A DNA stretch of 64,000 nt. Origin: an uncultured delta proteobacterium. GTDB taxonomy: Bacteria > Desulfobacterota > Desulfobacteria > Desulfobacterales > JAHEIW01. Under the pieces are notes generated by a model. That model did no database searches, was not told where the DNA came from, and worked only from the letters and a program-made list of their open reading frames with translations. Shown here piece after piece: positions 15,079 through 64,000 of the stretch; positions within the stretch are counted from its first letter, which is position 1; every line of letters begins with the position of its first letter. Location: assembly GCA_963706575.1 (NCBI GenBank), contig CAVPNL010000001.1, positions 448,001 through 512,000 of the forward strand, read 5' to 3'. Made by a program: the position numbers and the translations under genes.

Positions 15079-17103
15079 TTACTTTTTAAAATTCGGCGGT
15101 CGCTTTTCCAGGAAAGCCGAGATGCCTTCTTTAGCAGCTTCCGTACAGGCAATTTCTCCGAATCCTTTATATCCGATTTCAAGGGCGTCATTGAAATTTG
15201 CAGTTGCCGCGCCTTCCTGGACCACTTTCACTGTGAGGGATACTGCTTCTTTGCTAAGCACCTGTCTGCCTGATTTGGGTTCCTCTGAAATTTTGAATTC
15301 AGGAATTTCAATCTTACTATCCGGAATGCCGCCTATTTTTCCCTGCAGGTGGTTAACCGCCTCAACAGCAGCTGAAATTAATGCGGCATAATCATCCACG
15401 ATTCGGGTAACCATGCCGACATCTGCGGCTTCTTCAACCCCGAGCGGCCGGCCCAGACAAATCATTTCATGAAACAGAGCGGCACCCTGGGGCCATTTGC
15501 GGTAGGGCACTACACAGCCGCCGATCCCCGGCAGGATCCCCAGCATGATTTCGGGGAACTGAAAGCTTGCGTTTTTCGTAGCGACTATCGCGTGACAGCG
15601 GATGGCCACTTCCAACCCGCCGCCAAGGGCAAATCCGTTGACGGCCGCCACCACGGGTCTTTGCATTTGATCCATATAAATCTGGACATTGGCGCAATCT
15701 CTGGCATACTGGGCCGAAGCTCGGGCATCTCCGAGCATTTCCGGAAATTTGCCGATGTCAGCCCCTGCTGAAAAAGCGGCTGTTCCGTAACCGGTGATGA
15801 CAAATCCCTTGACCGCCGGGTCGACTTCGAATTCCTTGAAAACGGACAGGATTTCGTCTGTCAGCTCTTCGTTGAGGGCATTCATGGCCTGCGGACGGCG
15901 GATGGTAATCACCTTGACGCCGTCGATATCATCTACCAGGACGAAGCGCTTGAAATCCTGATATGTTCCAAGCGCTTGCTGCGGCATCGGAAATCCCGGT
16001 CGTTCTGATTGAAAGCGGTCCATGATCCGCTTGACTTCATCTTCCCCCAGTTCCCGCATCAGATCCAGCGGCCCTTTGCGAAACCCCAGGGCTACCTGAC
16101 AACCGAAGTTGAGATCGGCTTTGGTTCCGATCCCGCGGTCGATAATATCGAAAGACTGTGAGAACAGGATGCCCAGCAGGCGGTCACGGACGGCCGACTT
16201 TATGTCTTGCGGAACTTCCACCGGGCTGCCGGGGCGGTGCGTGAGCCAGCGATCCACCGACGCCAGAATGGAGGCGGGCAGGTAATGGGTGCCTTCTTCC
16301 ATCTGCAGGCTGTTGGTTTCAATGATAATCGGATTTCCGTTGGTCATGTTCATGACAAAAAATGGTCCGGCAAAGACGAATTCTTCGGCGACTTTGTCAA
16401 TCTGGCCGGCGGTTGCCTGATCCAGTAAGTAGGCGGATTCGTTGCACCAGTTGTCAAAGATGCGGTTCAGTATAAAACAGATGGCGTTGTCGGTAATGAT
16501 GGGTGCTTTGCCGGTATTGGCAAAAAACCAGAACAGGTAATCCAGGGTCTCCTGGCTGCCTTTTTCCCAGGCGATGACCTCAACCGGAAGGCTTCTCCAG
16601 GCCGGCGCAAAAAAGTGGGTGATGGAGGTGCGCTGCGGGTTTTTCATATGGCAAAAGATTCTGTCAGCCGGGATTGAGGAGGTGTTTGAGGTGATGATGG
16701 TATCGGCACTGACAATATTTTCAACGGTTTCAAAAATTTTTTGTTTCAGCGGAATGGATTCGGTGGCAGCTTCGATGACCAGCTGGCAATTTTTAATCTG
16801 CTGGTAGTCGGTGGTATAGACGATATTTTCGCGAACTGCGGCTGCTTTTTCGGGCTTCAGCTTCTTTTTGTCGATGGCCTTATCCGTGTATCCGGCAATA
16901 CGCTGTTCCGCCAGTTGGAGCGGCTTCTCAACAACATCCACCAGATACAGCTTGCTGTTCGGAATGGCGCTTTTCAAATAATAACCGATATCCGGACCGA
17001 TGGTGCCGGCGCCGATGACAGCGATTTCATCCGGCAGCGATCTTGAAGGCTCAATCAGCAAAGGGTTAAATGCCGTTTGATAGAGTTTTTTTTCAGCGTT
17101 CAT
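15079..17103 (-). CDS. 3-hydroxyacyl-CoA dehydrogenase / enoyl-CoA hydratase fusion (IaaP-like)
   Basis: VIGAGTIG, IEAATE, SNTSSI and THFF, followed by a crotonase domain (FSAGADI, ALGGGLE, FPEIMLG). Confidence 0.9.
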   Translation of the reverse strand: MNAEKKLYQTAFNPLLIEPSRSLPDEIAVIGAGTIGPDIGYYLKSAIPNSKLYLVDVVEKPLQLAEQRIAGYTDKAIDKKKLKPEKAAAVRENIVYTTDYQQIKNCQLVIEAATESIPLKQKIFETVENIVSADTIITSNTSSIPADRIFCHMKNPQRTSITHFFAPAWRSLPVEVIAWEKGSQETLDYLFWFFANTGKAPIITDNAICFILNRIFDNWCNESAYLLDQATAGQIDKVAEEFVFAGPFFVMNMTNGNPIIIETNSLQMEEGTHYLPASILASVDRWLTHRPGSPVEVPQDIKSAVRDRLLGILFSQSFDIIDRGIGTKADLNFGCQVALGFRKGPLDLMRELGEDEVKRIMDRFQSERPGFPMPQQALGTYQDFKRFVLVDDIDGVKVITIRRPQAMNALNEELTDEILSVFKEFEVDPAVKGFVITGYGTAAFSAGADIGKFPEMLGDARASAQYARDCANVQIYMDQMQRPVVAAVNGFALGGGLEVAIRCHAIVATKNASFQFPEIMLGILPGIGGCVVPYRKWPQGAALFHEMICLGRPLGVEEAADVGMVTRIVDDYAALISAAVEAVNHLQGKIGGIPDSKIEIPEFKISEEPKSGRQVLSKEAVSLTVKVVQEGAATANFNDALEIGYKGFGEIACTEAAKEGISAFLEKRPPNFKK

Positions 17104-17197
17104 GGCGAGCATTCCTTTCCGGTAAAGTTGGGTTCAATTTATATCATTATTCGCAAAAATAAAGTAAAGAAACTGAAATAAAGCGCAAGATAATTTC

Positions 17198-17238
17198 CTT
17201 GACACGTTTTTGTATACCGTATACAAAAGTGTGTCAAG
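17198..17238. promoter_or_regulatory. 41-bp palindrome: two opposed -35 boxes around operator TGTATACCGTATACA
   Basis: CTTGACACGTTTTTGTATAC-C-GTATACAAAAGTGTGTCAAG, between divergent genes. Confidence 0.8.
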
Positions 17239-17439
17239 TTGGTGTAAACACCCATTTCTGAAAAGCTGGCGGGCGCATTCATTGCCTCAGCCGTTTTGCA
17301 TTTTTTGCGATCGTAAAGTCACAATTACACGCACGGTTTGAGATTTTGCGAGATTATGCATATCCATTCTTGCGATTCCATTAAAACTCCACAAAAATAT
17401 TATTGGCAATAGCAACACCAGTAAAAAAGGGGACATACC

Positions 17440-19020
17440 ATGAAAGTTTTAGTTAGTGACAATCTCGGAGAAGCTGGCATTCAGATGTTTGAAGAAGAAG
17501 CGGGATTTGAAGTGGATGTAAAAACCGGTCTTGAGCCTGATGAACTCAAGAAAATCATCGGAAACTATGATGCGCTGGTGATTCGCAGTGCTACCAAGGT
17601 TACGGAAGAGCTCCTGGAAGCGGCTGAAAAACTCAAGGTGGTGGGGCGGGCCGGGATCGGGCTGGATAATGTCGATATACCGGCTGCTACGAAACGGGGC
17701 GTTCTGGTGATGAATACGCCCACCGGTAACGTGGTAACCACCGCGGAGCATACGATTGCAATGATGATGGCGCTGACCCGCAATATCCCCTGGGGCACTT
17801 CGACGTTAAAAGATGGAAAATGGGAAAAGAAAAAACTGCAGGGACGTGAAATTTATAACAAAGTAATCGGTATCATCGGCTTAGGTAAAATCGGGTCCAT
17901 TGTCGCTGACCGTGCCCGCGGGTTAAAGATGCAGGTAATTGTTCACGATCCCTATATTCCGGATGAGCAGATTGAAAAGGCCGGTTTTGAAGCGGTGTCT
18001 GTAGAAGATTTATACCGCAGAGCAGATTACATCACGGTGCATGTGCCTAAATTAAAGGATACCCTGGGACTCATTAACAAAAGAGCCTTCGATCAAATGA
18101 AAGACGGCGTCATGATCATCAACTGCGCCCGCGGTGGAATTGTCGATGAGGCTGATTTGAACGAAGCCCTGAAATCTGGCAAGGTGGCCGGCGCTGCTCT
18201 GGATGTGTTTGAGAACGAGCCCCCCGGAGTTTGCCCGCTGTTTGAAATCGACCGGGTAATCTGCACGCCCCATCTGGGCGCTTCGACCCTGGAAGCCCAG
18301 ACCAATGTGGCCGTTATGGTGGCGGAACAGATCATTGCTTATCTAAGAGATGCAACGGTTATCAATGCCGTCAATGTTCCGCCGGTCAGTGGCGATTTGC
18401 TTGAAAAACTGAACCCCTATTTAACCCTGGCAGATCGTATGGGCTGTTTGCTGGCTCAGCTTTCACAGGGGGCAGTGAAAGAGATTTTGATCGAATATGC
18501 CGGTCATTTTGACGACCTGGATCTGTCTCCGGTCACCACGGCAGTTTTAAAAGGGCTGATGACCCCCATGATTAAAGACGATGTCAACTTTGTCAACGCG
18601 CAGGTTCTGGCGAAGGAACGCGGAATTAAGATTACAGAAGCCAAGATTACCGAGTCCGAAGAATATGTAAATTTGATTACCGTCAATGCGGTTTCCGAGG
18701 AAGGTAAAAACAAAGTTGCCGGAACGATATTCGGACGGAAAAATCCAAGGGTGGTCAACATTAACAATTTTCGCCTCGAATTGGAGCCGGTGAATCGTTT
18801 TGTCTTGATCCACAACCATGACAAACCCGGTGCCATCGGCAGTATCGGAACCCTTCTGGGAGAGAACAATATCAACATCAGCCGGATGCGGCTGGGCCAG
18901 GAAGAGGGCTCCGACAAGACCATGATATTTCTGCGGACCGATACACCGATACCTGAAGATGTGATTGAAAAAATGAGAGCATTGCCGCTGATGATCAGCG
19001 TGGCATCGTTTGAGCTCTAA
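17440..19020 (+). CDS. serA: D-3-phosphoglycerate dehydrogenase (with ASB and ACT domains)
   Basis: IRSATK, GRAGIGLDNVD, GLGKIG, NCARGG, TPHLGAST; C-terminal HDKPGAIG ACT domain. Confidence 0.93.
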   Translation: MKVLVSDNLGEAGIQMFEEEAGFEVDVKTGLEPDELKKIIGNYDALVIRSATKVTEELLEAAEKLKVVGRAGIGLDNVDIPAATKRGVLVMNTPTGNVVTTAEHTIAMMMALTRNIPWGTSTLKDGKWEKKKLQGREIYNKVIGIIGLGKIGSIVADRARGLKMQVIVHDPYIPDEQIEKAGFEAVSVEDLYRRADYITVHVPKLKDTLGLINKRAFDQMKDGVMIINCARGGIVDEADLNEALKSGKVAGAALDVFENEPPGVCPLFEIDRVICTPHLGASTLEAQTNVAVMVAEQIIAYLRDATVINAVNVPPVSGDLLEKLNPYLTLADRMGCLLAQLSQGAVKEILIEYAGHFDDLDLSPVTTAVLKGLMTPMIKDDVNFVNAQVLAKERGIKITEAKITESEEYVNLITVNAVSEEGKNKVAGTIFGRKNPRVVNINNFRLELEPVNRFVLIHNHDKPGAIGSIGTLLGENNINISRMRLGQEEGSDKTMIFLRTDTPIPEDVIEKMRALPLMISVASFEL

Positions 19021-19172: not shown

Positions 19173-20996
19173 GTGAGCAAGAGAAGATTATTACTGGGAA
19201 ATGAAGCCATCGCGCGCGGGTTGATCGAAAGCGGATGTACCATTGCAACATCTTATCCGGGGACGCCGGCATCCGAGATTCTTGCCGCCGTGGCCTATTT
19301 TCAAAACGAAGAATCGCTTTCCATGCATACCCAATGGGCGGTTAACGAAAAAGTCGCCTTCGAGATTGCCTATGCCGGGTGCCAGACCGGGCTGCGTGCC
19401 GCGGTCAGCATGAAGCAAGTCGGTTTGAATGTGGCTTCCGATCCGCTCATGAGTGCCGCTTATATGGGGATCAATGGCGGGTTTGTTTTGATCAGCGCCG
19501 ATGATCCCGGACCCCACTCTTCACAAACTGAGCAGGACAGCCGGCTGATGGCCATGTTTGCCAAGATACCGGTGCTGGATCCGGATTCACCCCGTCAGGC
19601 CAAAGAACTGATGGGGGTTGCGTATGAAATATCTGAATCCTTTAAAACCCCCGTGATGGTGCGGCCCACCACCCGGGTGTGCCATTCCAGGCAGGATATT
19701 TCGCTGGGCTCCATTCCGAAAAACAAACGCCGGGCGCATTTCGAAAAAAATCCGGCCCGCTGGGCTGCGACCCCTAAATTCCGACTGCAACTTCACAGGG
19801 AGTTGGAAGAAAAGCTGGCCGCCATTGCAAAGTATCGGCCGACAGCCCCCAAAAAGCTGAATCGCAAAGCCAAATCCGGCAAAGCAATTATTGCTTCGGG
19901 TGTGGCGGCCGCTCATACCAAAGACATTTTAAGAGAATTGAAAATCTGGTCAAAAATTCCTTTTTATCAGGTCATTCAACCGTTTCCGCTGCACAGCAAA
20001 TTTATTGAGCATATTATCGCCAGCTATGAAGAGGCTCTGGTTATTGAAGAAACCATGGGCGTGATTGAGATGCAACTGGCCGACCGTTATCGCATCAAAG
20101 GCAAATTATCGAATACGGTGCCAAGGGTTGGCGAACTTAGCCCTGAAAAGATAGAGGAAATTGTCAGTAAATTTGTCGGACTAAAATCCGAAGCGGTTAC
20201 CATAAAATCTATCCCTGGCAGACGCCCGACCCTGTGCCCCGGATGCCCGCATCGCGCCAGTTTTTTTGCCATAAAAAAAGCCGCTCCCAGAGGGATTTAC
20301 ACCAGCGATATCGGCTGCTATACGCTGGGCCTCAATCTCGGAGCCGTCGATACGGTGCTCTGTATGGGCGCTGCCATCAGTCAGGCCGCCGGATTTTATC
20401 ACGCCTATAAAAATGAAGAAAAACGGCCGGACATTGTGGCCACCATCGGTGATTCAACTTTTTTCCATGCCGGCGTACCGGCTCTTATCGATGCGGTCGT
20501 CCAGAATGTCGGCTTTGTGCTGGTGATCCTTGATAACCGCACCACTGCCATGACCGGCAATCAACCCACGCCGGCCACCGGCCATGGGGCCTGCGGCGAG
20601 TCCACTGAGACCGTTGATATCGAATCACTGGTTCGCGGATGCGGTGTTAAATTTATCCGGGAAAGCAATCCTTACGAACTCAAGGAGTTTACGGCTCTTC
20701 TTAAAAAGGCCGTTAAATACAGCCGCAAAAACGGACCCGCCGTGGTTATTTCAAGATATCCGTGCGTGCTGCACCGGGCCAGGCAGGGCGATACCGGGGA
20801 ATATATACCGGTCGAAGTGAGTGAAAAGTGCGACGGTTGCGGTTATTGCATCAAGCATTTTGAATGTCCGGCCCTGATCTATCATGATGACAAAGAAGAA
20901 AAACACGTCAGCATCGATCCGATTCTGTGCACTTCATGCGGCGTGTGTTTGAATGTCTGTCCCAAAGGGGCATTCGTTGAAAAAACTAGGGAGTAA
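19173..20996 (+). CDS. iorA: Indolepyruvate:ferredoxin oxidoreductase alpha subunit
   Basis: LLGNEAIARG, YPGTPASE, MKQVGLNVA, LCPGCPHR, DIGCY and GDSTF; C-terminal 2x[4Fe-4S] motifs. Confidence 0.92.
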   Translation: MSKRRLLLGNEAIARGLIESGCTIATSYPGTPASEILAAVAYFQNEESLSMHTQWAVNEKVAFEIAYAGCQTGLRAAVSMKQVGLNVASDPLMSAAYMGINGGFVLISADDPGPHSSQTEQDSRLMAMFAKIPVLDPDSPRQAKELMGVAYEISESFKTPVMVRPTTRVCHSRQDISLGSIPKNKRRAHFEKNPARWAATPKFRLQLHRELEEKLAAIAKYRPTAPKKLNRKAKSGKAIIASGVAAAHTKDILRELKIWSKIPFYQVIQPFPLHSKFIEHIIASYEEALVIEETMGVIEMQLADRYRIKGKLSNTVPRVGELSPEKIEEIVSKFVGLKSEAVTIKSIPGRRPTLCPGCPHRASFFAIKKAAPRGIYTSDIGCYTLGLNLGAVDTVLCMGAAISQAAGFYHAYKNEEKRPDIVATIGDSTFFHAGVPALIDAVVQNVGFVLVILDNRTTAMTGNQPTPATGHGACGESTETVDIESLVRGCGVKFIRESNPYELKEFTALLKKAVKYSRKNGPAVVISRYPCVLHRARQGDTGEYIPVEVSEKCDGCGYCIKHFECPALIYHDDKEEKHVSIDPILCTSCGVCLNVCPKGAFVEKTRE

Positions 20997-21080
20997 GCAT
21001 TAAATAGTAAGCAGTAAGCACCATAGAGTAGGCAGCCGTAAATGCAAACCGGCAAACTGCTTACTGCCTATTGCTTACTA
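20992..21080. repeat. 7-mer-period inverted-repeat element
   Basis: agtaagc/agtaggc units followed by gcttact/gcctatt units. The left arm overlaps the iorA stop codon. Confidence 0.7.
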
Positions 21081-21095
21081 TTATACGGGGGATAT

Positions 21096-21656
21096 ATGAG
21101 CAAGACAGTTAAACAGCAAATTCTGATCAGCGGAGTAGGCGGGCAGGGGGTTCTGTTTGTTACGGGCCTTCTGGCAGAAGCGGCCATCAGTAAAGGATTG
21201 GCGGTATTTACCTCGGAAACTCACGGTATGGCTCAACGCGGAGGAACGGTTGTGTCCCATTTTAAGGTCGGCGATTTCTCGAGCCCTTTGATCCGGCCAT
21301 TTAAGGCAGACGGGTTGCTGGTATTAAAGGACGAAAATATCGCCCAGCACGGGTCATTTCTAAGAAAGGGCGGCTGGGCGGTGGTTAATAGCGGTAATGA
21401 TTTGAAAATTGACAAAACATTAACGGCCAGCGGCATCGATGCGGACAAACTGGCCCAGGAAATCGCGAACCCGAAATCCGTTAATCTGATTATGCTGGGC
21501 TTTGCACTGGCAAAGGCCGGCAAAAAAGGCGGGGGTCCAATCAATCTGTTCTGCACATTGACCGATATTAAGAAAGTTCTGCGCAAAAAATTCAGCAGCC
21601 GCAAGAAGCTGATAGATGCCTCCATTAAGGCCTTAGATACAGGCTATTATTTCTGA
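21096..21656 (+). CDS. iorB: Indolepyruvate:ferredoxin oxidoreductase beta subunit
   Basis: GVGGQG and SETHGMAQRGGTV; start after a GGGGG RBS. Confidence 0.9.
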   Translation: MSKTVKQQILISGVGGQGVLFVTGLLAEAAISKGLAVFTSETHGMAQRGGTVVSHFKVGDFSSPLIRPFKADGLLVLKDENIAQHGSFLRKGGWAVVNSGNDLKIDKTLTASGIDADKLAQEIANPKSVNLIMLGFALAKAGKKGGGPINLFCTLTDIKKVLRKKFSSRKKLIDASIKALDTGYYF

Positions 21657-22909
21657 TTTTGATACTTCTTCTTGACAAATTCTAGTGATTCATCAATAGC
21701 GGTTAATGTTAGATTCAAGTCTTCTTGTGTATGCCGATAACAGATATATGCGTGATGATAAGGCGTGAAGAAAAATCCCTTTCGAATCATCTGTGTATAA
21801 AAATCTTTTCGTTTACCTTTATATGATCCTGATTCATCTTTTTTAAAAGTAATATAAAACATGGGTGCAATACCAGTGAGTTCGGCGCCCACGTCATGAT
21901 TTTCTATGATCTCCTGAATTTTTTCCATGAACCACTCACCTTTTTTCCATATCTCCGCCAAGACATTATCTCGTTCTAAAATTTCAATGGTCTTAAGCGC
22001 TGCAATAAAGGCTTCGCTGTTGGGGAAAAAAGTTGAAGAAATGAAGAGCTTTTCTGCAGCCGCCATCATAATATCCTTTTTACCGGTGACAACCGAAATC
22101 GGATACCCGTTGGCAATAGCTTTCCCTAAAACCGAGATATCCGGATATACACCGTAAAGGGCTTGGGCGCCGCCGAGAGACAGTCTGAAACCCGTTCGGA
22201 TTTCATCATAGATCAGAACAGCTCCGTATCTGTCACTCAGGTTCCTAACCCCTTCAAGGAATCCAGATTTGGGTATTTGCATTTTTTGATGGTTGGGGTG
22301 GCCGAATGGTGTCATTATGATAGCTGCAGTTTCGTCACCATGAGTAGCCAGAAGGTCTTCAAGTTGCTTAAGGTTATTGTACTCGAATTCAAACACGTCT
22401 TCATAGAATTTTGATGGAATCCCACCTTTCATCTCGACACACCAGTCATGCCAGCCATGATAACCACATCGCATGACTTTAATCCGGTTCGTGTAGGCTC
22501 TTGCAATTCGAATACTTGCCGTTGTTGCATCGGATCCGGTTTTTAAAAAAATACTCATTTCAGCGCAAGGGACAAGCTCAGCGATTTTTTTCGCCAAAAC
22601 ATTTTGATATTTTTGCGTAAGCGAGAAGCAAAAACCCTTTTCTTTAATCTGTTTATAAACTGCCTCATCTACCTCTTTTTCACGGTAACCGAGGATAATG
22701 GGGCCGTAACCACACAGAAAATCAATAAATTCATTGCCGTCCACATCATAAAGCCGGCATCCTTTACCACTTTCAAGAAAAATGGGATATTCGCCAGCAA
22801 TGAAATCGGTGGGTTTTCTAGCCCCCAGAACCCCACCAGCTATAAGCGCACATGCCTCTTCAAAAAGCTTTAGGCTATTTGATATATTGAGCTTGTCTGT
22901 CTCTTTCAT
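21647..22909 (-). CDS. Class III PLP aminotransferase (GSA-aminomutase-like)
   Basis: DVDGNEFID, GYHGWHDW, DEIRTGFR, GKAIANG. Confidence 0.88.
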   Translation of the reverse strand: MKETDKLNISNSLKLFEEACALIAGGVLGARKPTDFIAGEYPIFLESGKGCRLYDVDGNEFIDFLCGYGPIILGYREKEVDEAVYKQIKEKGFCFSLTQKYQNVLAKKIAELVPCAEMSIFLKTGSDATTASIRIARAYTNRIKVMRCGYHGWHDWCVEMKGGIPSKFYEDVFEFEYNNLKQLEDLLATHGDETAAIIMTPFGHPNHQKMQIPKSGFLEGVRNLSDRYGAVLIYDEIRTGFRLSLGGAQALYGVYPDISVLGKAIANGYPISVVTGKKDIMMAAAEKLFISSTFFPNSEAFIAALKTIEILERDNVLAEIWKKGEWFMEKIQEIIENHDVGAELTGIAPMFYITFKKDESGSYKGKRKDFYTQMIRKGFFFTPYHHAYICYRHTQEDLNLTLTAIDESLEFVKKKYQNQK

Positions 22910-22925: not shown

Positions 22926-24074
22926 TTATTTATCTGTTTTAAACATGGAAGCTATTTTTTCAGTCTGGTGGATCCTTGCCCCTCTCTTGATAAATGCACT
23001 TAGAAATTTGTCTGGGTCAATACAGCCCTCGGGAGCAACAACACCGGTTTCAGTCACATCACCTGCGTCCATCATTAAAGATGCTATTGATGCAGGAAGA
23101 CCGGTTCCAGGAGCCATTCTTCCGACCATGTCAGCCGTATATGTGACTCTATTTCCATTTTTTTTACCATTGACGATTACCTTTAGACCTGAAGACTGCG
23201 GACCGTTGTCTCTGCCTTCGGGAATCGTTTCCCAGAGCTTAAGTGCAAGATCATAAGGTGTCACCTGAACACCCTTTATATCAATAGGCTCTGTTCCCAA
23301 AAAACCGGTATCTTTCTGTTCTTTAATCAACTCATCGACCCATAGTGGGATAAGGGCGCCTTTAATGATGACGTTTTTAACCCCTTTGATGTACTTCGGT
23401 AGGGTCAAAGGTTGGGGATGTCCCACATAACGGACATGACAGGTACCAAGGGGTTCAAGGAATTGTGCGGCCACAACCTCGGTGCCACCTTCCACATAAA
23501 CCAGTTCCCCATTAATATATTGCGGGATTTTACCAAGGGTCATATGAAGACTATGATCCCAGGCAGCGCCTGCAAGTTCGGCAATACTGACCACCCAGTA
23601 AAGATAAATGTCGTCAACCTCATCAAGACGGTCTGCATACCATTTTACCAATACATTATTGGTACCAGGATCTGACCCCATGCCGGTGAGGACAGTGATC
23701 CCAGCATCCCTAGCCAAGTTATCTATTTCGGAGTTAAAAAGGATTTCAGTGCCCTCGTAATCATCACAAATATCGATATAATTCACCTTGGCCTCCACAG
23801 CAGCTTTTGCCACTGGTACCGCTGTTTTATAAAAAGGGCCTGCTGTGTTAATAACAACATTGACTTCCTTGAATGCATTAACCATAGATTCATGGTCATT
23901 GACATCCATCTTGACTAGTTCGGTCTTTTCATTTTCACGCAATTTTGTTGAGAGTCTTTGAGGATCAGGGAAAAGGTCTGCTAAGATGACAGATGTAACT
24001 TTTTCCTGTTTGATTAAATCTCTAGCGACACCCTGGCCCATACCACCAACTCCACCAATGATTAATACACGCAT
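22926..24074 (-). CDS. Saccharopine dehydrogenase-like NAD(P)-dependent oxidoreductase
   Basis: IGGVGGMG, NTAGPF, YIDICDD, GMGSDPG, GVVAPE. Confidence 0.85.
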   Translation of the reverse strand: MRVLIIGGVGGMGQGVARDLIKQEKVTSVILADLFPDPQRLSTKLRENEKTELVKMDVNDHESMVNAFKEVNVVINTAGPFYKTAVPVAKAAVEAKVNYIDICDDYEGTEILFNSEIDNLARDAGITVLTGMGSDPGTNNVLVKWYADRLDEVDDIYLYWVVSIAELAGAAWDHSLHMTLGKIPQYINGELVYVEGGTEVVAAQFLEPLGTCHVRYVGHPQPLTLPKYIKGVKNVIIKGALIPLWVDELIKEQKDTGFLGTEPIDIKGVQVTPYDLALKLWETIPEGRDNGPQSSGLKVIVNGKKNGNRVTYTADMVGRMAPGTGLPASIASLMMDAGDVTETGVVAPEGCIDPDKFLSAFIKRGARIHQTEKIASMFKTDK

Positions 24075-26939: not shown

Positions 26940-26964
26940 TGGAAATCCTTCCATATTTCTTTTC

Positions 26965-53276: not shown

Positions 53277-53367
53277 GGACTGAGAGGAAGAATTGCGGAT
53301 AGAAACGAGGAGTAAGATCTAAAACAGAAATAATCTAACGATTGATAAATAAAATCCGGAGGATTTT

Positions 53368-53889: not shown

Positions 53890-53902
53890 AATTCGCTATT
53901 GC

Positions 53903-53995
53903 ATCGCGGCAAGATGCCGCTCCCACATATTTTTTATAGGGTTAGACATAAGTGTTGTGATTGAATAGATAGTGGGAGTGGCTTCCAGCCTCGAT
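53903..53995. repeat. Inverted pair of REP-like palindromes
   Basis: atcgcggcaagatgccgctcccac ... gtgggagtggcttccagcctcgat (GTGG-type REP form). Confidence 0.7.
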
Positions 53996-54029
53996 TTGTA
54001 CCGAGTTTAATAATTTGAGGAGAAAATCG

Positions 54030-56502: not shown

Positions 56503-58609
56503 ATGAACTTCAAGATTGGAATTGATGTAGGGGGAACATTTACCGATTTTTTACTGGTCCTGGATGACGGTTCCTCCAAAATCTACAAGGTTCTTTCCAC
56601 CCCACAGGACCCTTCCATAGCGACCATGACCGGCCTTGGCGAAATGGCATCCGATCAGAATCTGAGTCTCGCAGGAATTTTTGGAGCGTGTCGCCGTTAT
56701 TGTTCATGGAACAACGGTAACGACCAATGCCGTTCTGACCTATACCGGTTCTAAAACCGCCCTGCTGACCACCGAAGGGCTGCGAGACACTCTTGAGATG
56801 CGAAGAGGCATCCGGGAGCGTCAATACGACAACCGTTATCCGAATGTTGAGCCGCTTGTCGAACGATACCTGAGAATACCCGTGGAAGAACGAATCGATT
56901 ATAATGGCGAAGTCGTTATTGCATTAAAGCGGGCGGATGTGGAAAATGCCGTCGATTTTATGGTTCAGGAGGGCGTTGAAGCCATCGGCGTTTGTTTTAT
57001 GAATGCCTTCGCAAACAATCAGCATGAGGAAGAGGTGGGCGGAATCATTCAGCAAAGGATTCCACAGGCCTATCTGACGATATCGAGTCGGCTGCTGCCA
57101 TCCATTCGTTTTTACGACCGGGTGAGTACCACGGTTCTAAATTCTTATGTCGGCCCTACGCTAAAACGCTACCTCTCCGCTTTGATCTCTAAACTGCAGC
57201 AGGCAAAATACGAAGGTATCCTCCTGATCATGCAATCCAACGGTGGTGTCGTGTCTCCGGAAGTGGCGATCGAAAGAGCTGCGGTTACCCTACTGTCAGG
57301 GCCCGCCGGCGGTCCGGTGGCAGGGGTGGAATATGCCGCTGCACAGGGATATGATGATTGCATCACCGTTGACATGGGTGGGACCAGTTTTGATGCTTCG
57401 ATGGTCAAGGATAAAACGCCCATGGTGACGACCAGCGGAGAGATCAACCGGCTCAAGCTTGCCCTGCCGATGCTGAATGTTGTCACGATAGGTGCCGGCG
57501 GCGGCAGCATTGGCTGGATCGATGAGGGCGGGCTGCTAAAGATGGGGCCTCAAAGTGCCGGCGCCAATCCGGGACCGGCGTGTTATGACCTTGGCGGGGA
57601 ATTGCCGACCTGTACCGATGCGGATCTGGTGCTGGGATACCTGGACAAGGACTTTTTCGCAGGCGGACGCATTTCTCTGAATCTGAATAAAAGCCGGGAT
57701 TCGATTGAGAAGCATATTGCCGGGCCATTGAAGCTCGATTTAGCAGAAGCTGCAGCCGGAATGTACAGCGTGATCAATGTAAATATGGCAGCTGCTGTTC
57801 GTGAAGTTTCGGTCAAGCAGGGATATGATCCCCGGGATTTTCCGCTGGTGATTGCAGGGGGGGCAGGTCCGAATCATGCGTGCATGATCGCCTTGGAACT
57901 GGAGATTCCGGTTATGATCATTCCCAAGGAATCATCAATCTTTTGTGCGGCCGGGATGCTCAGGTCTGATTTAAAGCACGATTTCGTAAACACCTATGCA
58001 ACAGAGCTAGACGCTGCCGATCCCGCCAGATTTAAAAAGTCATTTGGGGATATGAAAGCACAGGGAATCGAGCTTTTAATATCCGAAGGAATTCCGCAAA
58101 ATCGGATTGAGCATATTTTTTCCCTGGATTTGAGATATGTAAAGCAGTACCATGAGGTCAATGTCGAAATCTCCTTGCAAGAAATCGAACGGGCAGACTT
58201 CGGCTCTATCGCCACCCGTTTTCATAAAAAGCACAATGCGCTATTTGGCTATTCACTTGAAGAAGAACAAACTCCCGTGGAGCTGATTAACCTCAGGGTC
58301 ATGTGCATCGGTCAAACCGCAAAACCAAAATTTCAGCTGGAAGCATATGACGGTTCAGATCCGTCAAAGGCCCACAAGAAAAGCCGGCAAATCTATTTGT
58401 CCCTGCAAAAGTCCTTTAAAACGGTGGATGTTTTTGACGGCGCCAAACTTAGATTCGGTAACAAGGTCGTTGGGCCCGCTGTCATCGAGCAGGTCAATAC
58501 CACCACCTTTGTAGCGCCGGAATTCAGCCTGCTGGTGGATAAATTCGGGTCGTATACCATGTACATGAAAACCCATGAAGAAGCGGCCGAAAAAAGAATA
58601 TTGAATTAA
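56503..58609 (+). pseudogene. Second hydantoinase/oxoprolinase subunit A, split by a +1 frameshift
   Basis: IDVGGTFTD in the first ORF; HGTT, LSGP, DMGGTS and IGAGGGS in the second. Removing one base near 56669-56676 joins them. Confidence 0.8.
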
Positions 58610-58775: not shown

Positions 58776-59558
58776 TTGAACGATAAAATTATTTTTGCGT
58801 TGCAGGGCATTTCAATCAGCTTTGGCGGGCTGCAGGCTGTCGCCGATTGCTCATTTGAAATATGCGACGGCGAAATTTTTTCTCTGATCGGGCCCAACGG
58901 CGCCGGTAAAACAACCATATTTAATATTATTAATGCGCTTTACAAACCCGATAGCGGTCGCGTTTTGCTGGAAGGTGAAGATTTAGTTTCCCTGAAACCG
59001 CATCAAATCGCAAGGCGTGGAATTGCGCGCACATTTCAAAATATCGAGCTTTTCAGTGAGATGAGTGTGCTGGAAAATATTCTGGTGGGCCGGCACTTTT
59101 TTTTCAAATCAGGTGTTTTAGCCAACAGTCTGGCATTCGGTAATTCTAAAAATGAAGAAGCCCAAAATATAGAAACAGCTACTGAAATTATCTCGTTTTT
59201 GGAATTGGAAGAATACGAGAACCAGAAAGTCACCGACCTGTCTTTCGGGATTCAAAAGCGTGTCGAGCTGGCCCGGGCGCTGGCACTGAACCCCAAAGTG
59301 CTGCTGCTGGATGAACCCGCAGGAGGATTAAACCCCCAGGAGACAGAACACCTGATGGAAGTCATCAAAGCCATCCGGGATAAACGTGGCATTACGATTT
59401 TCCTGGTCGAACACGACATGCGCCTGGTGATGGGGCTCTCGGACAGAATATGTGTGCTGCATTTCGGTGTCAAAATTGCAGAGGGAACTCCGGAGGTCAT
59501 CCAAAAAGACCCCAAAGTTATCGAAGCCTACTTAGGAACTACCCGAACCCATGCTTGA
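58776..59558 (+). CDS. livG: HAAT-family ABC transporter ATPase (LivG-like)
   Basis: GPNGAGKTT, ARTFQN, LLLDEP, VEHDM. Confidence 0.88.
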   Translation: MNDKIIFALQGISISFGGLQAVADCSFEICDGEIFSLIGPNGAGKTTIFNIINALYKPDSGRVLLEGEDLVSLKPHQIARRGIARTFQNIELFSEMSVLENILVGRHFFFKSGVLANSLAFGNSKNEEAQNIETATEIISFLELEEYENQKVTDLSFGIQKRVELARALALNPKVLLLDEPAGGLNPQETEHLMEVIKAIRDKRGITIFLVEHDMRLVMGLSDRICVLHFGVKIAEGTPEVIQKDPKVIEAYLGTTRTHA

Positions 59559-60258
59559 ATTAAAATCGATAGAGTCATATTACGGCAAGATACAGGCCCT
59601 CAAAGGGATAGACCTGGAGGTGCCCGAAGGCGGAATCGTTGCCATATTGGGCGCTAACGGTGCCGGCAAAAGTACGACCTTGAAGACGATTTCAGGATTG
59701 ATTCAACCACTGCGAGGCCAGATTTTGTTCCAGGGGCAATCCATCCATAAAAGTGAACCGCATCAAATTGTGCGCATGGGAATTTGTCAGGTGCCGGAGG
59801 GGCGCGATATCTTTATGGGTCTGACGGTGCAGGAAAACTTGAAGATGGGCGCCTTTACCCGCAAAGACACGAAGGACATTCAGAATGATCTGGAACGGAT
59901 TTTTCAATCGTTTCCGATATTACAAGAACGGGCAAGGCAACAGGCGGGGACGCTGAGCGGCGGCGAACAACAGATGCTGGCGATTGCCAGAGGATTGATG
60001 TCAAACCCCAAATTGATGCTGCTGGACGAGCCGTCCCTGGGATTGGCGCCACTGATGGTGGCAGAAATATTTCAGATTATCGCAGAAATAAATAAAGAAG
60101 GCGTCACCATTTTGCTGGTGGAGCAAAATGCCAATATGGCACTGCAAACCGCCCAGTACGGCTATGTGATGGAAACTGGAAGTGTTGCCCTGCATGATTC
60201 CGCAGAGAATCTGATCCAGAACGATTACGTCCGGCAAGTATATTTGGGCGCCGGCTAA
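59551..60258 (+). CDS. livF: HAAT-family ABC transporter ATPase (LivF-like)
   Basis: GANGAGKST, LSGGEQQM, LDEPSLGLAP, VEQNA. Confidence 0.9.
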   Translation: MLELKSIESYYGKIQALKGIDLEVPEGGIVAILGANGAGKSTTLKTISGLIQPLRGQILFQGQSIHKSEPHQIVRMGICQVPEGRDIFMGLTVQENLKMGAFTRKDTKDIQNDLERIFQSFPILQERARQQAGTLSGGEQQMLAIARGLMSNPKLMLLDEPSLGLAPLMVAEIFQIIAEINKEGVTILLVEQNANMALQTAQYGYVMETGSVALHDSAENLIQNDYVRQVYLGAG

Positions 60259-60276
60259 CTAAAAGGGATGAAGTTT

Positions 60277-60303
60277 CCCTGGGGCCCCGATTGGACCCCA
60301 GGG
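60277..60303. terminator. GC-rich hairpin between convergent genes
   Basis: CCCTGGGG-N11-CCCCAGGG. Confidence 0.5.
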
Positions 60304-60313
60304 GTGTAGTTTC

Positions 60314-61522
60314 TTACTGTTTTAACGGTACGAGTCTGCCGTCTTGCAAAGTCAGCCAGCTTGAGATGGATCGGAATACGCTTTGCTGGACTTCCACCAT
60401 AAAACCGGAATTTTGGGCGAGGTGATCCGTCGCTGAAAAACTGACCGGTGGCGCAATTCCGCTCTCCCAATTCTTAATCCCTTCAAGGGCGGCAATATAA
60501 CTTTCACGGGTGACATTTTTACCGGCCCTTTTGAGACCCTCAACAAACAGCTTGGCATAATAGTAGCCGAACAGGCTGTAACGATTCGGCGTTTTGTCTC
60601 TATCCTCACCGTACTGGTCTACGATTTTTCTGTATTCCACCACAGCCGGGTCCTGAGAATGCACCGGATCAGGCCACAGAGAGAGTCCCCAGACACCTTC
60701 ACCGACACCGCCGGACAGGTTGATATATTTTTCGTCCGTCAGCGGACCCGAGGATATGATCTTGGTGTCTTTCCAACCCTGTTTATGGGCTTCTTTCAGG
60801 AAAGTGGCTCCCGGCGGGGGCGTGGCCACCAGCAGACAGGCATCCAGCTTGGCTTTGCGCAACTTGGCTACCTGGGCGCTCAGATCCTTGGCCCCGCGCT
60901 TGTAAGACTCTGCTGCTGCCCAGTTCAACCCTAATTTCTGGAGTGTTTTTTGACCGGGATCCCTGAAAGTGTGACCATAGGCATCGTCCTGATACAGGAT
61001 GCCGATTCTTTTAAACCCTTTGACCTTTACCAGCCAGGTGACAACCAGCTCTGATTGATTCGAATACGGCGTAAAAGATGTAAATATCGTCTTTTGGCCT
61101 GAAATCGGTACCCCTTGAAACGGGAATAGCAGGGGCACTTTGTTTTGCGTTAAATACTTTACCGTTGCCATGACGGGTCCGGTCCCCTGGGAAGAAAGGA
61201 TTGCGAAAACCTTATCCTGTTCCACCAGTCGCTTGGTGTTAGCAACGGCATTCTGGGGTTTATAGCCGTCGTCGTAAAATTTAGTATCGATTTTCCTGCC
61301 GTTAACTCCGCCCTGGGCGTTGATATATCCGATGTAAGATTTCAGCCCGTTGTTCACCAGCTGGGTGCCCGGATAAACCAGGGGCCCCGAAAAACTGTTG
61401 GAGCACCCGACCAGGATCGAGTTATCGGTGACACCCACTTCGGCGTTCACATCGTTTGCCGCGAAGCAGAGTGCAACCATAACGATAAGTCCGAAAGTGG
61501 ATAAGTACCTCAGTTTAAGCAT
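60314..61522 (-). CDS. HAAT-family ABC substrate-binding protein
   Basis: Signal peptide; INAQGGVNGRKI, DDGY, YQDDAYG; AGGAGG RBS. Confidence 0.9.
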   Translation of the reverse strand: MLKLRYLSTFGLIVMVALCFAANDVNAEVGVTDNSILVGCSNSFSGPLVYPGTQLVNNGLKSYIGYINAQGGVNGRKIDTKFYDDGYKPQNAVANTKRLVEQDKVFAILSSQGTGPVMATVKYLTQNKVPLLFPFQGVPISGQKTIFTSFTPYSNQSELVVTWLVKVKGFKRIGILYQDDAYGHTFRDPGQKTLQKLGLNWAAAESYKRGAKDLSAQVAKLRKAKLDACLLVATPPPGATFLKEAHKQGWKDTKIISSGPLTDEKYINLSGGVGEGVWGLSLWPDPVHSQDPAVVEYRKIVDQYGEDRDKTPNRYSLFGYYYAKLFVEGLKRAGKNVTRESYIAALEGIKNWESGIAPPVSFSATDHLAQNSGFMVEVQQSVFRSISSWLTLQDGRLVPLKQ

Positions 61523-61621
61523 AATGGAACCTCCTTTCATGGTGGGATTGATTGAGATAAGAAAATTCGTTTATTTTTTTGCCACTGCCTTTTCGTGTTT
61601 GGTTGTACAGCGCATGCAGCG

Positions 61622-62563
61622 TTAAAGAAACCTTTCTTTGAGATCGGTTAACATGCCGACAATACCTCTGGGCATAAATATCATAAAGATGATCAAAGAC
61701 AAGCCAAAAATCAATATCTGCAGGTCCAGCAAGCCAGCAAATGCCTGTTGGATACCGGTCAGAATGACCGCCCCGATTATGGATCCTAAAATCGAGCCCA
61801 TCCCGCCGATGACGATCATGGCGATAAAGTCAATCGAAAGTTCAATCGTAAAGGCATCCGGGGATAAAAACGTAATTAAATAGGCAAACAGGCCGCCGGC
61901 AACACCGGTGTAGAAGGCGCTGATGGCAAAGGCGATGGTTTTATACTTGGCCAGATCGACTCCGATGGTCTGGGCAGCGACTTCACTCTCTCTCAAAGCA
62001 ATAAACGCTCTGCCGATATAACCATTGACCAGATTTTTTGCCAAGAGGGTCATAATAACTGTTACCGGGATGATCAGATAAAAAAGCTTGAAATCGGAAT
62101 CAAACACAAAGCTGCCGATTCTGGCTGTGGGCACACTGAAGCCGTCATCACCGCCGGTCACCGAGCTCCACTGCAGAATAATCTCACTGATGACCACGCC
62201 GAATGCCAATGTGGCCATGGCGATGTAAAAACCTTTTAAACGCAGGATCGGTATACCCAGCAGAAAGCCGATCAGTCCGCTGATGGTGCCGGCCAGCAAA
62301 AGCGTCAGCGGGCAGGGTAGCCATTCCAAATTGGCCGTAACGATAGCGGTGACATAGGCACCGATAGCCAGAAATCCGGCATGCCCGGCAGCGATCTGGC
62401 CGGTATAGCCCATCAACAGGTTCAAACCCAGGGAAACCAGGGCATAAATAGACAGCAGACTTAGGAGGAAAACAGAGTATTTCCCTAAAAACAAGGGCAT
62501 GATGAGCAAGACGACCAAAGCGCTTATCCAACCCAATATTTTCCATTTACCCGATAATTGCAT
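61622..62563 (-). CDS. livM: HAAT-family ABC permease (LivM-like)
   Basis: GLNLLMGYTGQ, LRLKGFYIAMATL, VIGGMGS. Confidence 0.88.
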   Translation of the reverse strand: MQLSGKWKILGWISALVVLLIMPLFLGKYSVFLLSLLSIYALVSLGLNLLMGYTGQIAAGHAGFLAIGAYVTAIVTANLEWLPCPLTLLLAGTISGLIGFLLGIPILRLKGFYIAMATLAFGVVISEIILQWSSVTGGDDGFSVPTARIGSFVFDSDFKLFYLIIPVTVIMTLLAKNLVNGYIGRAFIALRESEVAAQTIGVDLAKYKTIAFAISAFYTGVAGGLFAYLITFLSPDAFTIELSIDFIAMIVIGGMGSILGSIIGAVILTGIQQAFAGLLDLQILIFGLSLIIFMIFMPRGIVGMLTDLKERFL

Positions 62564-62577
62564 TAAAAATCACCTGT

Positions 62578-63444
62578 TTAAACCTTGGTAAAGCGCTCTA
62601 CGCCCATGATTCCCTTGGGGCGGATGACCAGTACAATGAAAATCACCGCAAAGGGAACCACATTTTTGATTTGAGAAGGCAGATACAGGGGCGCCACATT
62701 ATCGATGACGCCCAGCAGCATGCCGCCAATAATCGCACCCGGGATGCTGCCCCAGCCGCCTAGTATCGCCGCGGCAAAACCGTTGATAACCACGATTCCC
62801 ATGTGGGTGCTGAGAAATACGACCGGTGCCATCAGAATACCAGCCACCGCCGCCACCAGAAAGCTAATAGCCCAGGTGACGGCAAAGGATTGCTTGACAT
62901 TCACCCCCATCAGTAAAGCCGCACTCTGGCTTTCACTTACCGCCCGCATGGCCGTTCCATAACGCGTGTACATGAAAAATGCATACAGAATCACCATGAG
63001 CAGGACGGTGGCGCTGATATTTCCCAGACCGATCAAATCAATGGTGGCGCCGCCGATAGAAATGGTTTCATCGGGAAAGACACTGGGGTAGGGATAGTCA
63101 TTGTGACTCCAGATAAAGCCGGACAGGCTTTTCATCACAATCGACACCCCCAGGGTTATGATAAAGATATTGAAATGTGGGGCCCGCATGGCCGGGCGGA
63201 TAAAGAGCCGCTCGGTGATGATCCCCAGCAGGGCTGATATCACAAGGGTCAGCAAAATAGCGATCCAGAGCGAAAGCCCCAGCATACTAAAAAAAGTAAA
63301 TCCCACAAAAGCAGAAACCATCGACATTTCGCCCTGGGCAAAATTGACATGTTCGGTTGTATTGTAGATTAAAGCTAACCCCAGGGCCACAAGGGCATAG
63401 ATACTGCCGGTGGCCAGACCGCTGAATATGACCTGAAGTAGCAT
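62578..63444 (-). CDS. livH: HAAT-family ABC permease (LivH-like)
   Basis: GSIYALVALG, VNFAQGE, GTAMRAV, AILGGWGS. Confidence 0.88.
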   Translation of the reverse strand: MLLQVIFSGLATGSIYALVALGLALIYNTTEHVNFAQGEMSMVSAFVGFTFFSMLGLSLWIAILLTLVISALLGIITERLFIRPAMRAPHFNIFIITLGVSIVMKSLSGFIWSHNDYPYPSVFPDETISIGGATIDLIGLGNISATVLLMVILYAFFMYTRYGTAMRAVSESQSAALLMGVNVKQSFAVTWAISFLVAAVAGILMAPVVFLSTHMGIVVINGFAAAILGGWGSIPGAIIGGMLLGVIDNVAPLYLPSQIKNVVPFAVIFIVLVIRPKGIMGVERFTKV

Positions 63445-63518
63445 ATGATCTCCCTTGTGGGGCTTTAGAAGAGATTTGAGATTAGAATGTGTGAGTCTGT
63501 CTTGGCCAGGACCTGTCG

Positions 63519-63578
63519 TTGACAACCATTTTCGTATACTGTATACAACCGGATAGCATAAGCCATCTTGACTGTCAA
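63519..63578. promoter_or_regulatory. Divergent promoter region with operator CGTATACTGTATACA
   Basis: Plus strand: TTGACA (63519)-17 nt-TATACA. Operator at 63533-63547. Minus-strand TTGACA at 63573-63578. Confidence 0.75.
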
Positions 63579-63658
63579 CCGAGGCCTCTGAAAAATGCTG
63601 CCTCGAACCTCTCCCGCGTTGATTGTTAATTTAAATTCCGGGGTCGGGGTGTTTTTCC

Positions 63659-63733
63659 CGTTATGCCCGCGTAGGCGGGCATCCAGGTTGCTGCACTCAA
63701 TTTTTCTGGATTCCTGCCTTCGCAGGAATGACG
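63659..63733. repeat. Inverted pair of GTCATTCCCGC-type palindromic repeats
   Basis: cgttatgcccgcgtaggcgggcatccag ... ctggattcctgccttcgcaggaatgacg. Confidence 0.75.
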
Positions 63734-63778
63734 GATCTTAGCACAGAAAACATCGCTACTGCTCAATTAAATTAGAAA

Positions 63779-64000
63779 ATGGCAATTTTCAAGAAATTTG
63801 ATCATATCGGCGTTGTTGTCGAAGACCTCCGGAAAGCTATGGATGAGCTTTCGGATTTCTTTGGTTTAGAGTGTCAGGAGGTAATGGAAATTAAAGATGC
63901 CGGAATTCGAATCGCCTTTTATCCTTTGGGCTCCGGGCAAATGGAGCTTATTGAATTTCAAAAACCGATAGCGGATGTTGATCCGATCGTCACCCGCCCA
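63779..64000 (+). CDS. Partial VOC-family protein, methylmalonyl-CoA epimerase-like
   Basis: Manual translation MAIFKKFDHIGVVVEDLRKAMDELSDFFGL...IAFYPLGSGQMELIEF (DHIGV and ELIE motifs). Runs off the window edge. Confidence 0.7.
   Translation, partial: MAIFKKFDHIGVVVEDLRKAMDELSDFFGLECQEVMEIKDAGIRIAFYPLGSGQMELIEFQKPIADVDPIVTRP

Follow-up and report, generated by a model that had tools for sequence, protein, structure and literature searches.

Positions 15079-64000 of the stretch analyzed here (the window: 64,000 nucleotides, C1:448001-512000, C1 being a contig of the 5.67-Mb host genome G000) raise the question of how a strict anaerobe might degrade indole-3-acetate, a plant hormone and product of tryptophan, by the coenzyme A (CoA)-dependent iaa pathway of Aromatoleum when IaaF, the oxidative decarboxylase of that pathway, is not found among its genes. 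The host is a sediment bacterium of the Desulfobacteria class and a relative of sulfate reducers, and its closest relatives by mutase sequence are Desulfobacterales metagenome-assembled genomes, at 91-94%. A sequence-only reading of the window had proposed a ~49-kb regulon for an expanded, strict-anaerobe form of indoleacetate/tryptophan degradation, and every gene family that it named is indeed encoded there (the ligase begins at 49530, 49611 being its second Met). Gene content, a shared operator, orthology, active-site motifs and distribution among genomes together indicate that the region probably encodes a GntR-controlled regulon for the anaerobic conversion of indoleacetyl-CoA to 2-aminobenzoyl-CoA, acetyl-CoA and CO2, with the IaaF step replaced. 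The substrate is very likely indolic.

In the proposed route, entry would be through a CoA ligase acting on free indole-3-acetate or through IorAB, which would feed in tryptophan via indolepyruvate. By orthology to Aromatoleum, a xanthine dehydrogenase (XDH)-type enzyme would hydroxylate C2, an ATP-dependent lactamase (two pairs are encoded, the core one non-orthologous) would open the ring, and an IaaL-type transferase together with the IaaGH mutase would give (2-aminobenzyl)malonyl-CoA. The complementary distribution of genes described below suggests that a carboxyltransferase would then remove CO2 after epimerisation, probably via a biotin carrier encoded elsewhere, and that a dehydrogenase with a YEG motif would oxidize 3-(2-aminophenyl)propionyl-CoA to 2-aminocinnamoyl-CoA, in place of the single oxidative decarboxylation by IaaF. 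A dehydrogenase-hydratase fusion and an IaaA-type thiolase would complete beta-oxidation and, less certainly, an enzyme resembling 4-hydroxybenzoyl-CoA reductase (HBCR), with an adjoining dehydrogenase and aminotransferase, would remove the ring amino group.

Core enzymes shared with the iaa cluster

Reference proteins were obtained by a search with a stretch of the published iaaF primer, which led to a metagenome locus, L081, with the gene order Q-A-B-C-E-F-G-H-I-J-K-L-M. The L081 proteins cluster with the Aromatoleum aromaticum EbN1 accessions for IaaF, B, L, K and M at 94-99% identity, and served as EbN1 stand-ins for IaaA, C, E, G, H, I, J and Q; a plasmid search for an Aromatoleum-type reference gave mutases only 43-46% identical among the matches listed. 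Searches and trees (FastTree for IaaK, L and A and for the later lactamase and ligase trees) yield best or near-best matches in the window for IaaH, G, K, L and A, and the trees group H, K, L and A, as expected of an iaa-type regulon in a strict anaerobe. The one-to-one correspondence with Iaa proteins that had been envisaged is supported for these five; it fails for the acyl-CoA dehydrogenase, the ligase, the transport binding protein and both subunits of the core hydantoinase pair. Branching of the proteins outside the Iaa orthologues had been named beforehand as evidence against the reading; it applies to the latter five genes, while the pathway stands overall.

The small and large subunits of a B12-dependent mutase (43060..45283, + strand, beginning at 43060 and 43649) are the best G000 matches of IaaG (52%) and IaaH (54%), and the large subunit belongs to a clade that is sister to IaaH (support 100). 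This mutase and IaaH share a Gly-rich active-site segment where the solved mutases read HCQT, a substitution that may make room for the aryl group, and the Tyr and Arg that we take to bind the carboxylate are retained. The XDH-family enzyme (FAD, 2Fe-2S and Mo subunits, 52377..56357, +) has a Mo subunit, at 54015, that is the top-scoring match of IaaK (CAI07267, 48%), falls in the IaaK clade (support 96) and keeps the catalytic Glu (GAKGIGEP). A family III CoA-transferase (41019..42227, +) is of the IaaL clade (38% to CAI07268, support 100), and the thiolase (51043..52281, +) matches IaaA at 48%, with the next match at 28% (support 100). The 3-hydroxyacyl-CoA dehydrogenase/enoyl-CoA hydratase (HAD-ECH) fusion (15079..17112, -) would have an IaaP-like role in beta-oxidation; L081 offers no IaaP reference, and the fusion is recognized by domain content alone (Pfam 3HCDH_N and ECH_1). 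In relatives, too, the HAD-ECH gene stands behind the operator described below.

Proposed replacement of the IaaF step

The acyl-CoA dehydrogenase of the window (28327..29475, -) had been assigned as IaaF, to which it is only 33% identical. According to PMC8360864, the IaaF subclass is defined by a GGG motif, and all GGG members lie in iaa clusters. Since the window protein reads YEG at this position, it is not IaaF, and no IaaF was found among the 28 dehydrogenase-like open reading frames (ORFs) of G000 or, for this genome, in the class-wide search described below. With IaaF missing, the route as previously drawn therefore needs a different decarboxylation step. The YEG enzyme is instead a candidate 3-(2-aminophenyl)propionyl-CoA dehydrogenase, and at 29705..31267 (-) there is a candidate (2-aminobenzyl)malonyl-CoA decarboxylase, a carboxyltransferase of the PccB/MmdA fold that lies under the TIGR01117 cut-off (730.9 against 998.8). 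Its pocket reads GGGRLHEG, GGAVM and LVVLDT in place of the canonical GGARIQEG, GGAY and AVMG of PccB and 12S, and this private signature is conserved in 17 of 17 orthologues. Judged from motifs and distribution, the carboxyltransferase and an ordinary dehydrogenase appear to replace IaaF.

The distribution was followed in two samples. Among 80 mutase loci, 50 dehydrogenase ORFs of more than 250 residues were aligned: 38 are of the GGG type, spread over 29 loci, and 12 are of the window type, one in each of 12 further loci (YEG is readable in 11 of these, one being truncated); the two types never share a locus. The corresponding 79 genomes (L024, likely a misbinned record, is excluded) are labelled as IaaF only in 46, carboxyltransferase plus YEG dehydrogenase in 22, carboxyltransferase only in 3, YEG only in 1, carboxyltransferase plus GGG in 1 (G043) and none of these in 6, the IaaF labels coming from genome-wide searches in 50 (12 of them by score, with the motif unchecked) and from the loci themselves in 29. 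The second sample consists of 301 Desulfobacteria-class genomes picked independently of the pathway and partially overlapping the first; with the top 4-6 candidates per genome scored, 54 of them have the mutase, 33 the carboxyltransferase and 23 IaaF. The 54 mutase-positive genomes comprise 30 with the carboxyltransferase only, 22 with IaaF only, none with both and 2 with neither, and in both of the latter a contig ends in or beside the cluster. The 247 mutase-negative genomes hold the carboxyltransferase three times and IaaF once, in G270, where the mutase is frameshifted. Both states are found within one genus (g31), and the mutase tree requires 7 state changes against 19-25 among the 20 shuffles listed. 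A Fisher test of the 30/22/0/2 table gives p 4e-13, but it takes no account of kinship, and no weight is placed on it.

A number of observations weigh against this reading. Well-supported branches yield no more than 4 independent pairs (sign test p 0.125-0.25), so that the exclusivity, strong as the pattern is, is not phylogenetically significant once kinship is counted, and the lack of IaaF in G000 alone proves little because that genome is 91.8% complete and 6.4% contaminated. Neither a biotin carrier nor Na+-pump subunits were found in the window or cluster, the biotin carriers of G000 being at C15:396896 and C6:797249 and its pump beta subunits at C6:11780 and C9:28830. In G043 (L092:11975-14886) a carboxyltransferase orthologue divergently adjoins a GGG-type dehydrogenase of a distinct kind. 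As to the iaa relationship in general, identities to the Iaa proteins are moderate (38-57%), the outgroups of the trees are paralogues from G000 alone, the small XDH-family subunits match IaaI at 34% (top by 4 bits) and IaaJ at 48% (third match), a paralogue at C1:431247 is as close to IaaL (39%) as the 41019 gene is (38%), and orthologues of IaaE/IaaCE are found in just 7 of the 79 mutase genomes.

Three of these points, i.e. the cluster without a biotin carrier, the single genome that pairs the carboxyltransferase with a GGG enzyme and the small number of independent swaps, would suit an arrangement in which the carboxyltransferase and YEG dehydrogenase serve a side branch (e.g. indole-3-propionate, or carboxylation) while an unrecognised enzyme decarboxylates the malonyl intermediate. 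Such a side branch would, however, be expected alongside IaaF at least sometimes, and the sampled genomes have both in 0 of 54 and exactly one in 52 of 54; moreover, among recurrent neighbours no other gene family tracks the absence of IaaF. A side branch is accordingly judged quite improbable, and replacement of IaaF is the preferred explanation.

A mutase followed by a carboxyltransferase has been proposed for alkane degradation (PMC5606693). The alkylsuccinyl-CoA route put forward for Desulfatibacillum and Smithella resembles the one proposed here in that a B12-dependent enzyme forms a substituted malonyl-CoA by rearrangement, after which a separate carboxyltransferase and then ordinary beta-oxidation take over (PMC5606693); here, in contrast, the substituent is aryl rather than alkyl, there is no glycyl-radical step and the carboxyltransferase signature is distinct. 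The anaerobic electron acceptor of IaaF is stated to be unknown in PMC8360864. Syntrophorhabdus-type clusters (L062, L064, L067, L069-L071, L075-L077) contain two divergent tandem GGG dehydrogenases, most together with electron-transfer flavoprotein (ETF) and FixC; these tandem enzymes are possibly a heteromeric IaaF.

The operator and the extent of the regulon

A 13-bp palindrome, GTATACnGTATAC, is present four times in the window, at 17212, 31377, 40928 and 63534 (0.05 expected; 0 of 100 shuffles reach 4), and six times in exact form in the whole genome, the other two copies being at C1:105570 and C1:404038. The window copies head four transcription units: GTATACCGTATAC at 17212..17224 lies between the divergent HAD-ECH and serA-iorAB genes, the site at 31377..31389 upstream of the carboxyltransferase operon, that at 40928..40940 upstream of the main operon, and that at 63534..63546 between the ABC permeases and an epimerase-ligase-hydantoinase B unit. 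In relatives the motif stands ahead of CoA-transferase, carboxyltransferase, IorA, HAD-ECH, HcrB and TrpB2 genes, and a copy with one mismatch precedes an Aromatoleum-type iaaQ. It is likely a GntR/FadR-type site bound by the GntR/FCD regulator encoded at 42322..43029 (+), a Pfam-level domain call; this protein is 26-29% identical to IaaQ and only its third match, hence not its best hit.

The operator supports the earlier supposition that genes in several transcription units are co-regulated. The ~49-kb regulon itself is supported as a co-regulated set, but not in its limits: the stretch 31556-40857 has no operator of its own, and the regulon overruns both ends of the window. Beyond the 3' end, C1:511779-515443 carries an epimerase-like gene, a second ligase (C1:512170) and a second hydantoinase B; the first of these, called methylmalonyl-CoA-epimerase-like by resemblance only, begins inside the window (63779..64000, +; in full C1:511779-512177). 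Beyond the 5' end is an IaaB-like ligase gene at C1:404633, with the site at C1:404038.

The stretch 31556-40857 encodes an aldo-keto reductase, DUF169, dienelactone hydrolase, crotonase, MBL-rhodanese, PilZ, SDR, GNAT and DinB proteins, of which a same-genus genome keeps only MBL and PilZ; about 9 kb of the 15079-64000 interval is unrelated to the regulon. The crotonase at 35552 was considered as a core gene and rejected, having matches of at least 50% identity in only 2 of 80 loci. The rhodanese-MBL fusion (36501-37652) directly faces the carboxyltransferase across the operator in G234 and L039, and may be a regulon member displaced here by an insertion. The aldo-keto reductase gene (31556-32807) is split by a frameshift near 32500 that is probably an assembly indel.

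Lactamases, ligases and transport

The core ATP-dependent lactamase pair HyuA1/HyuB1 (45387..49479, +; A at 45387, B at 47680) had been equated with IaaCE, but it is only 37%/31% identical, and HyuB1 forms a clade separate from the IaaE-type B subunit. The two subunits are found in 66 and 56 of the 80 mutase loci, and the pair, although non-orthologous, is probably isofunctional with IaaCE. The actual IaaCE orthologue is a second pair, whose hydantoinase A (56504..58609, +) is 55% identical to IaaC and whose B subunit, HyuB2, the best match of IaaE at 57%, lies just outside the window at C1:513692-515443. In G045 and G046 an IaaCE-type pair adjoins the same PaaK-type ligase that is found here, which suggests that the two lactamase pairs are interchangeable. 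The second hydantoinase A gene has one extra base at 56671. That it might be a pseudogene like iaaD was considered and rejected, since contigs from two public runs, X2 and X4, lack the base (one of them is otherwise identical over 275 bases; X1 and X3 are uninformative there); the extra base is therefore most likely an assembly error, and the frameshift in the aldo-keto reductase gene fits assembly indels as the source of such a break.

The ligase of the main operon (49530..50903, +), previously taken for IaaB, is a PaaK-type aryl-acid CoA ligase present in 46 of the 80 loci, with only a 28-residue high-scoring segment in common with IaaB. The IaaB-clade ligase of this genome is the one at C1:404633, 44 kb upstream of the window (tree support 99), behind the site at C1:404038. 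A LIV-type ABC transporter (58776..63525) has its ATPases on the + strand and its binding protein and permeases on the - strand. The binding protein (60314-61540, -) is not IaaM, as had been supposed: it is 22% identical over 220 residues and outside the top 6 matches. A PDB search with it gave no relative informative about the ligand (best 3lop), and most relatives of the cluster have a TRAP transporter in the ABC position.

The three proteins that would select the substrate at entry, i.e. lactamase, PaaK-type ligase and binding protein, are thus not Iaa orthologues. Together with the moderate identities, and with the evident reuse of the same chassis in a second paralogous cluster at C1:406-442 kb, this would fit the same chemistry on another substrate, such as a ring-substituted indoleacetate, 2-oxindole-3-acetate, another N-heteroaryl acetate or phenylsuccinate. 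However, 22 of the sampled genomes have IaaF together with this core, G000 itself encodes an IaaB orthologue, preceded by the operator, at C1:404633, and G045 and G046 put an IaaCE-type pair beside the same PaaK-type ligase. Independent evidence for an indolic substrate, and for unsubstituted indole in particular, comes from the tryptophan-related neighbours of the clusters (TrpB2, IorAB, TrpD and Trp-tRNA ligase). Another substrate is accordingly rated improbable.

The second cluster, upstream of the window (G000:C1:406385-442213), has its own GntR and a B12 mutase with RNY rather than RQY, an XDH-type enzyme, two CoA-transferases, a carboxyltransferase (48%), a YEG dehydrogenase (57%), a thiolase, an epimerase, TrpB2, IorAB and SerC; no hydantoinase was seen in it. 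It is missing at the same place in the same-genus G234, and its repeated upstream motif is different and AT-rich. A third related cluster (G000:C1:251042-273896) contains a mutase, GntR, epimerase, carboxyltransferase (51%), HBCR-like enzyme, PaaK-type ligase, ABC transporter and a distant saccharopine-dehydrogenase-like gene. In two complete chromosomes the regions that flank the cluster hold little of the pathway.

Tryptophan and indole as possible entry points

IorA/IorB, of the indolepyruvate:ferredoxin oxidoreductase (IOR) family (19173..21656, +), follow serA behind the site at 17212, so that their proposed co-regulation with the iaa set is supported. IorA is over the TIGR03336 cut-off (665.2 against 650.9) and IorB slightly under its own (219.6 against 227); IorAB also belongs to the regulon in other lineages, at 46-50% identity. 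Extension of the pathway to tryptophan via IorAB is plausible on these grounds. SerA, a phosphoglycerate dehydrogenase (17440..19020, +; TIGR01327 656.8 against a cut-off of 454), is the sole full-length copy in G000, only 1 of 6 matches being over the cut-off.

TrpB2 uses O-phosphoserine. In relatives its gene is in one run with IorAB in G146, G224, G231, G290 and G311 (the operator is unseen in the G311 stretch) and immediately follows the operator in G158, G234 and G270; in 50 mutase-positive genomes with TrpB2, it is on one contig with the mutase in 20, and in 14 of these the two are at most 25 kb apart. The presence of TrpB2 as such was rejected as a marker of the pathway because it is near-universal in the class, being found in 70 of 80 mutase-negative genomes searched (of 241 eligible). 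The G000 copy is 76 kb from the mutase, and its control by this operator was also rejected, its best site having 3 mismatches.

An indole-scavenging role has been described for TrpB2 (PMC2700814). These associations suggest a funnel in which TrpB2 would join indole to (phospho)serine from the co-regulated SerA/SerC, tryptophan would be transaminated with return of its nitrogen to SerC, and IorAB would give indoleacetyl-CoA directly. This would differ from the published oxindole-isatin-anthranilate route for indole in Desulfobacterium indolicum (PMC6221969). That the funnel from indole via tryptophan is catabolic in at least some carriers is advanced only tentatively.

The same genes could instead be anabolic, with SerA and IorAB (plus TrpB2/SerC in relatives) making tryptophan from indole or by reductive carboxylation of indoleacetyl-CoA, a question that is independent of the core pathway. 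Searches of G000 and the same-genus G234 gave no TrpA, and no TrpB1 that exceeds the cut-off, so that tryptophan salvage is possible in G000; the frequency of TrpB2 in mutase-negative genomes and the proximity of TrpD and Trp-tRNA ligase to some clusters agree with this, and methanogens use IOR reversibly. Against it, G224 and G231 possess TrpA and TrpB1 and yet keep TrpB2 with IorAB in the regulon, and placing the sole full-length SerA behind a catabolic operator would imply a serine flux well above the demand for tryptophan. An anabolic role is a real possibility, though one rated less likely than not.

A possible fate of 2-aminobenzoyl-CoA

Four genes at 21647-28257 form an accessory module: a class III (HemL-like) aminotransferase (21647..22909, -), which in relatives adjoins the saccharopine-dehydrogenase-like NAD(P) oxidoreductase (22926..24074, -); an HBCR-clade Mo subunit fused to a 2Fe-2S subunit (24141..26954, -), a candidate 2-aminobenzoyl-CoA reductase; and an HcrB-like FAD subunit with a four-Cys insertion (27256..28257, -; TIGR03195 255 against a cut-off of 404.55). 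A single ORF here encodes the 2Fe-2S and Mo subunits, for which most relatives have separate genes; this is either a real fusion or an assembly error. The closest relatives of the enzyme are the 4-hydroxybenzoyl-CoA reductase of Thauera aromatica (1rm6, the best PDB match of the Mo subunit, E 1.3e-138) and the putative 4-aminobenzoyl-CoA reductase of Desulfatiglans anilini, with which GAKE, RxHG and the Cys insertion of the FAD subunit are held in common. It differs in falling below both TIGRFAM cut-offs (for the Mo subunit, TIGR03194 676 against 994.55), in its saccharopine-dehydrogenase-like and class III aminotransferase partners, and in having Met894 where 1rm6 has E726 and aldehyde oxidoreductase has E869, each presumably the catalytic Glu. 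All 6 orthologues whose C-terminus is readable, that of the window included, have Met at this position. For the saccharopine-dehydrogenase-like protein, a PDB search gave no informative relative and the Atlas only a family name.

The saccharopine-dehydrogenase-like gene is found in 32 of the 54 mutase-positive against 3 of the 247 mutase-negative genomes, and of those three, two are broken iaa clusters and the third has the carboxyltransferase. In the 79-genome set, this gene and the Mo subunit have matches in 46 and 49 genomes, respectively, and both in 42. The module was not found in the close relatives G003, G008 and G024 or in the complete chromosome G049.

That the module carries out reductive deamination of 2-aminobenzoyl-CoA is suggested by these motifs and associations, with the chances about evenly balanced. 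It may also be imagined, though this is rather a long shot, that the saccharopine-dehydrogenase-like protein and the aminotransferase make or recycle an N-alkylated intermediate on which the Glu-less HBCR-type enzyme would act. Class III aminotransferases typically act on omega-amines, and the module is dispensable, the saccharopine-dehydrogenase-like gene not being found in 22 of the 54 mutase-positive genomes nor the module in G049; both facts would accord with an entry module for an extra amine (e.g. tryptamine) rather than an exit for 2-aminobenzoyl-CoA. This is rated rather unlikely, since a Mo subunit of the reductase clade (GAKE, RxHG) that lacks the hydroxylase Glu fits aldehyde oxidation poorly, and since HBCR-like proteins have been suggested, untested, for 4-aminobenzoyl-CoA deamination in D. 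anilini (PMC7500099). Reductive deamination of an aminobenzoyl-CoA, the role favored here for the module, has been proposed since 1991 and is described as still untested in PMC7500099.

Other features of the window and genome

Window positions 2807-14900 encode an AlgI/AlgX-type O-acetyltransferase pair, an FHA-cyclase, a PP2C phosphatase, a Ser/Thr kinase, a polysaccharide deacetylase and a TPR-LysM protein; the synteny is kept in G234, and there is no relation to the regulon. Dispersed intergenic repeats at 26960-27260 and 58615-58743 are multi-copy in related genomes or deeply covered in public runs, and short heptamer-like repeats lie between several window genes. A near-identical yidC-mnmE-oadB region is present twice on separate contigs (G000:C6:5367-13339 and C9:28281-36401), consistent with strain mixing in the bin. 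RNA runs contain only 0.05-0.08 of the words, a share too small to show expression.

Relation to known pathways and significance

With the iaa cluster of A. aromaticum EbN1 and A. evansii (iaaA-M, P, Q, R) the window has in common IaaGH, IaaK, IaaL, IaaA, an IaaCE-type lactamase, an IaaB-type ligase (outside the window), a GntR regulator and the near-identical operator before iaaQ. It differs in having the carboxyltransferase and YEG dehydrogenase instead of IaaF, a core lactamase that belongs to a separate clade, additional ligases of the PaaK type and no IaaM; it adds SerA, IorAB, the epimerase and the HBCR-like module, and its genes are divided among several operons instead of standing in one. 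Because the window counterparts of IaaF and IaaM are not their orthologues, it is not a gene-for-gene member of the iaa family. The 2016 work by Schuhle reportedly lists iaa operons of sulfate reducers and could show further variants, this one included. PMC8360864 gives predicted iaa operons for the strict anaerobes Desulfatiglans anilini, strain NaphS2, Desulfocarbo indianensis and Ferroglobus placidus. They and the window have a strict-anaerobe host and the iaa core in common, and IaaF-bearing relatives also carry the ETF pair described; those operons, as presented there, have iaaF and ETF, whereas the window type has neither in its cluster. In the literature covered (titles and abstract openings, most subscription journals being outside coverage), no IaaF-less iaa cluster or TrpB2 funnel was found described. 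Operons of the iaa type in sulfate reducers are already in print, and what is new here is a variant of that pathway in which the decarboxylation step appears to be swapped.

For three open steps the locus offers candidate genes: the decarboxylation of benzylmalonyl-CoA by a biotin-type enzyme, which would bypass IaaF, the reductive removal of the amino group from aminobenzoyl-CoA, and the use of indole by sulfate reducers; and the 13-bp operator allows the regulon to be traced across genomes. If the proposals are correct, biotin-dependent decarboxylation could be coupled to a Na+ pump or to the carboxylation of pyruvate, the regulon would be a complete anaerobic route for free indole, and the Glu-less HBCR-type enzyme would be the 2-aminobenzoyl-CoA reductive deaminase. 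Since the core mutase is present in 54 of the 301 sampled genomes of the class (~18%), the pathway may be a widespread means of removing indoles derived from tryptophan in anoxic sediments.

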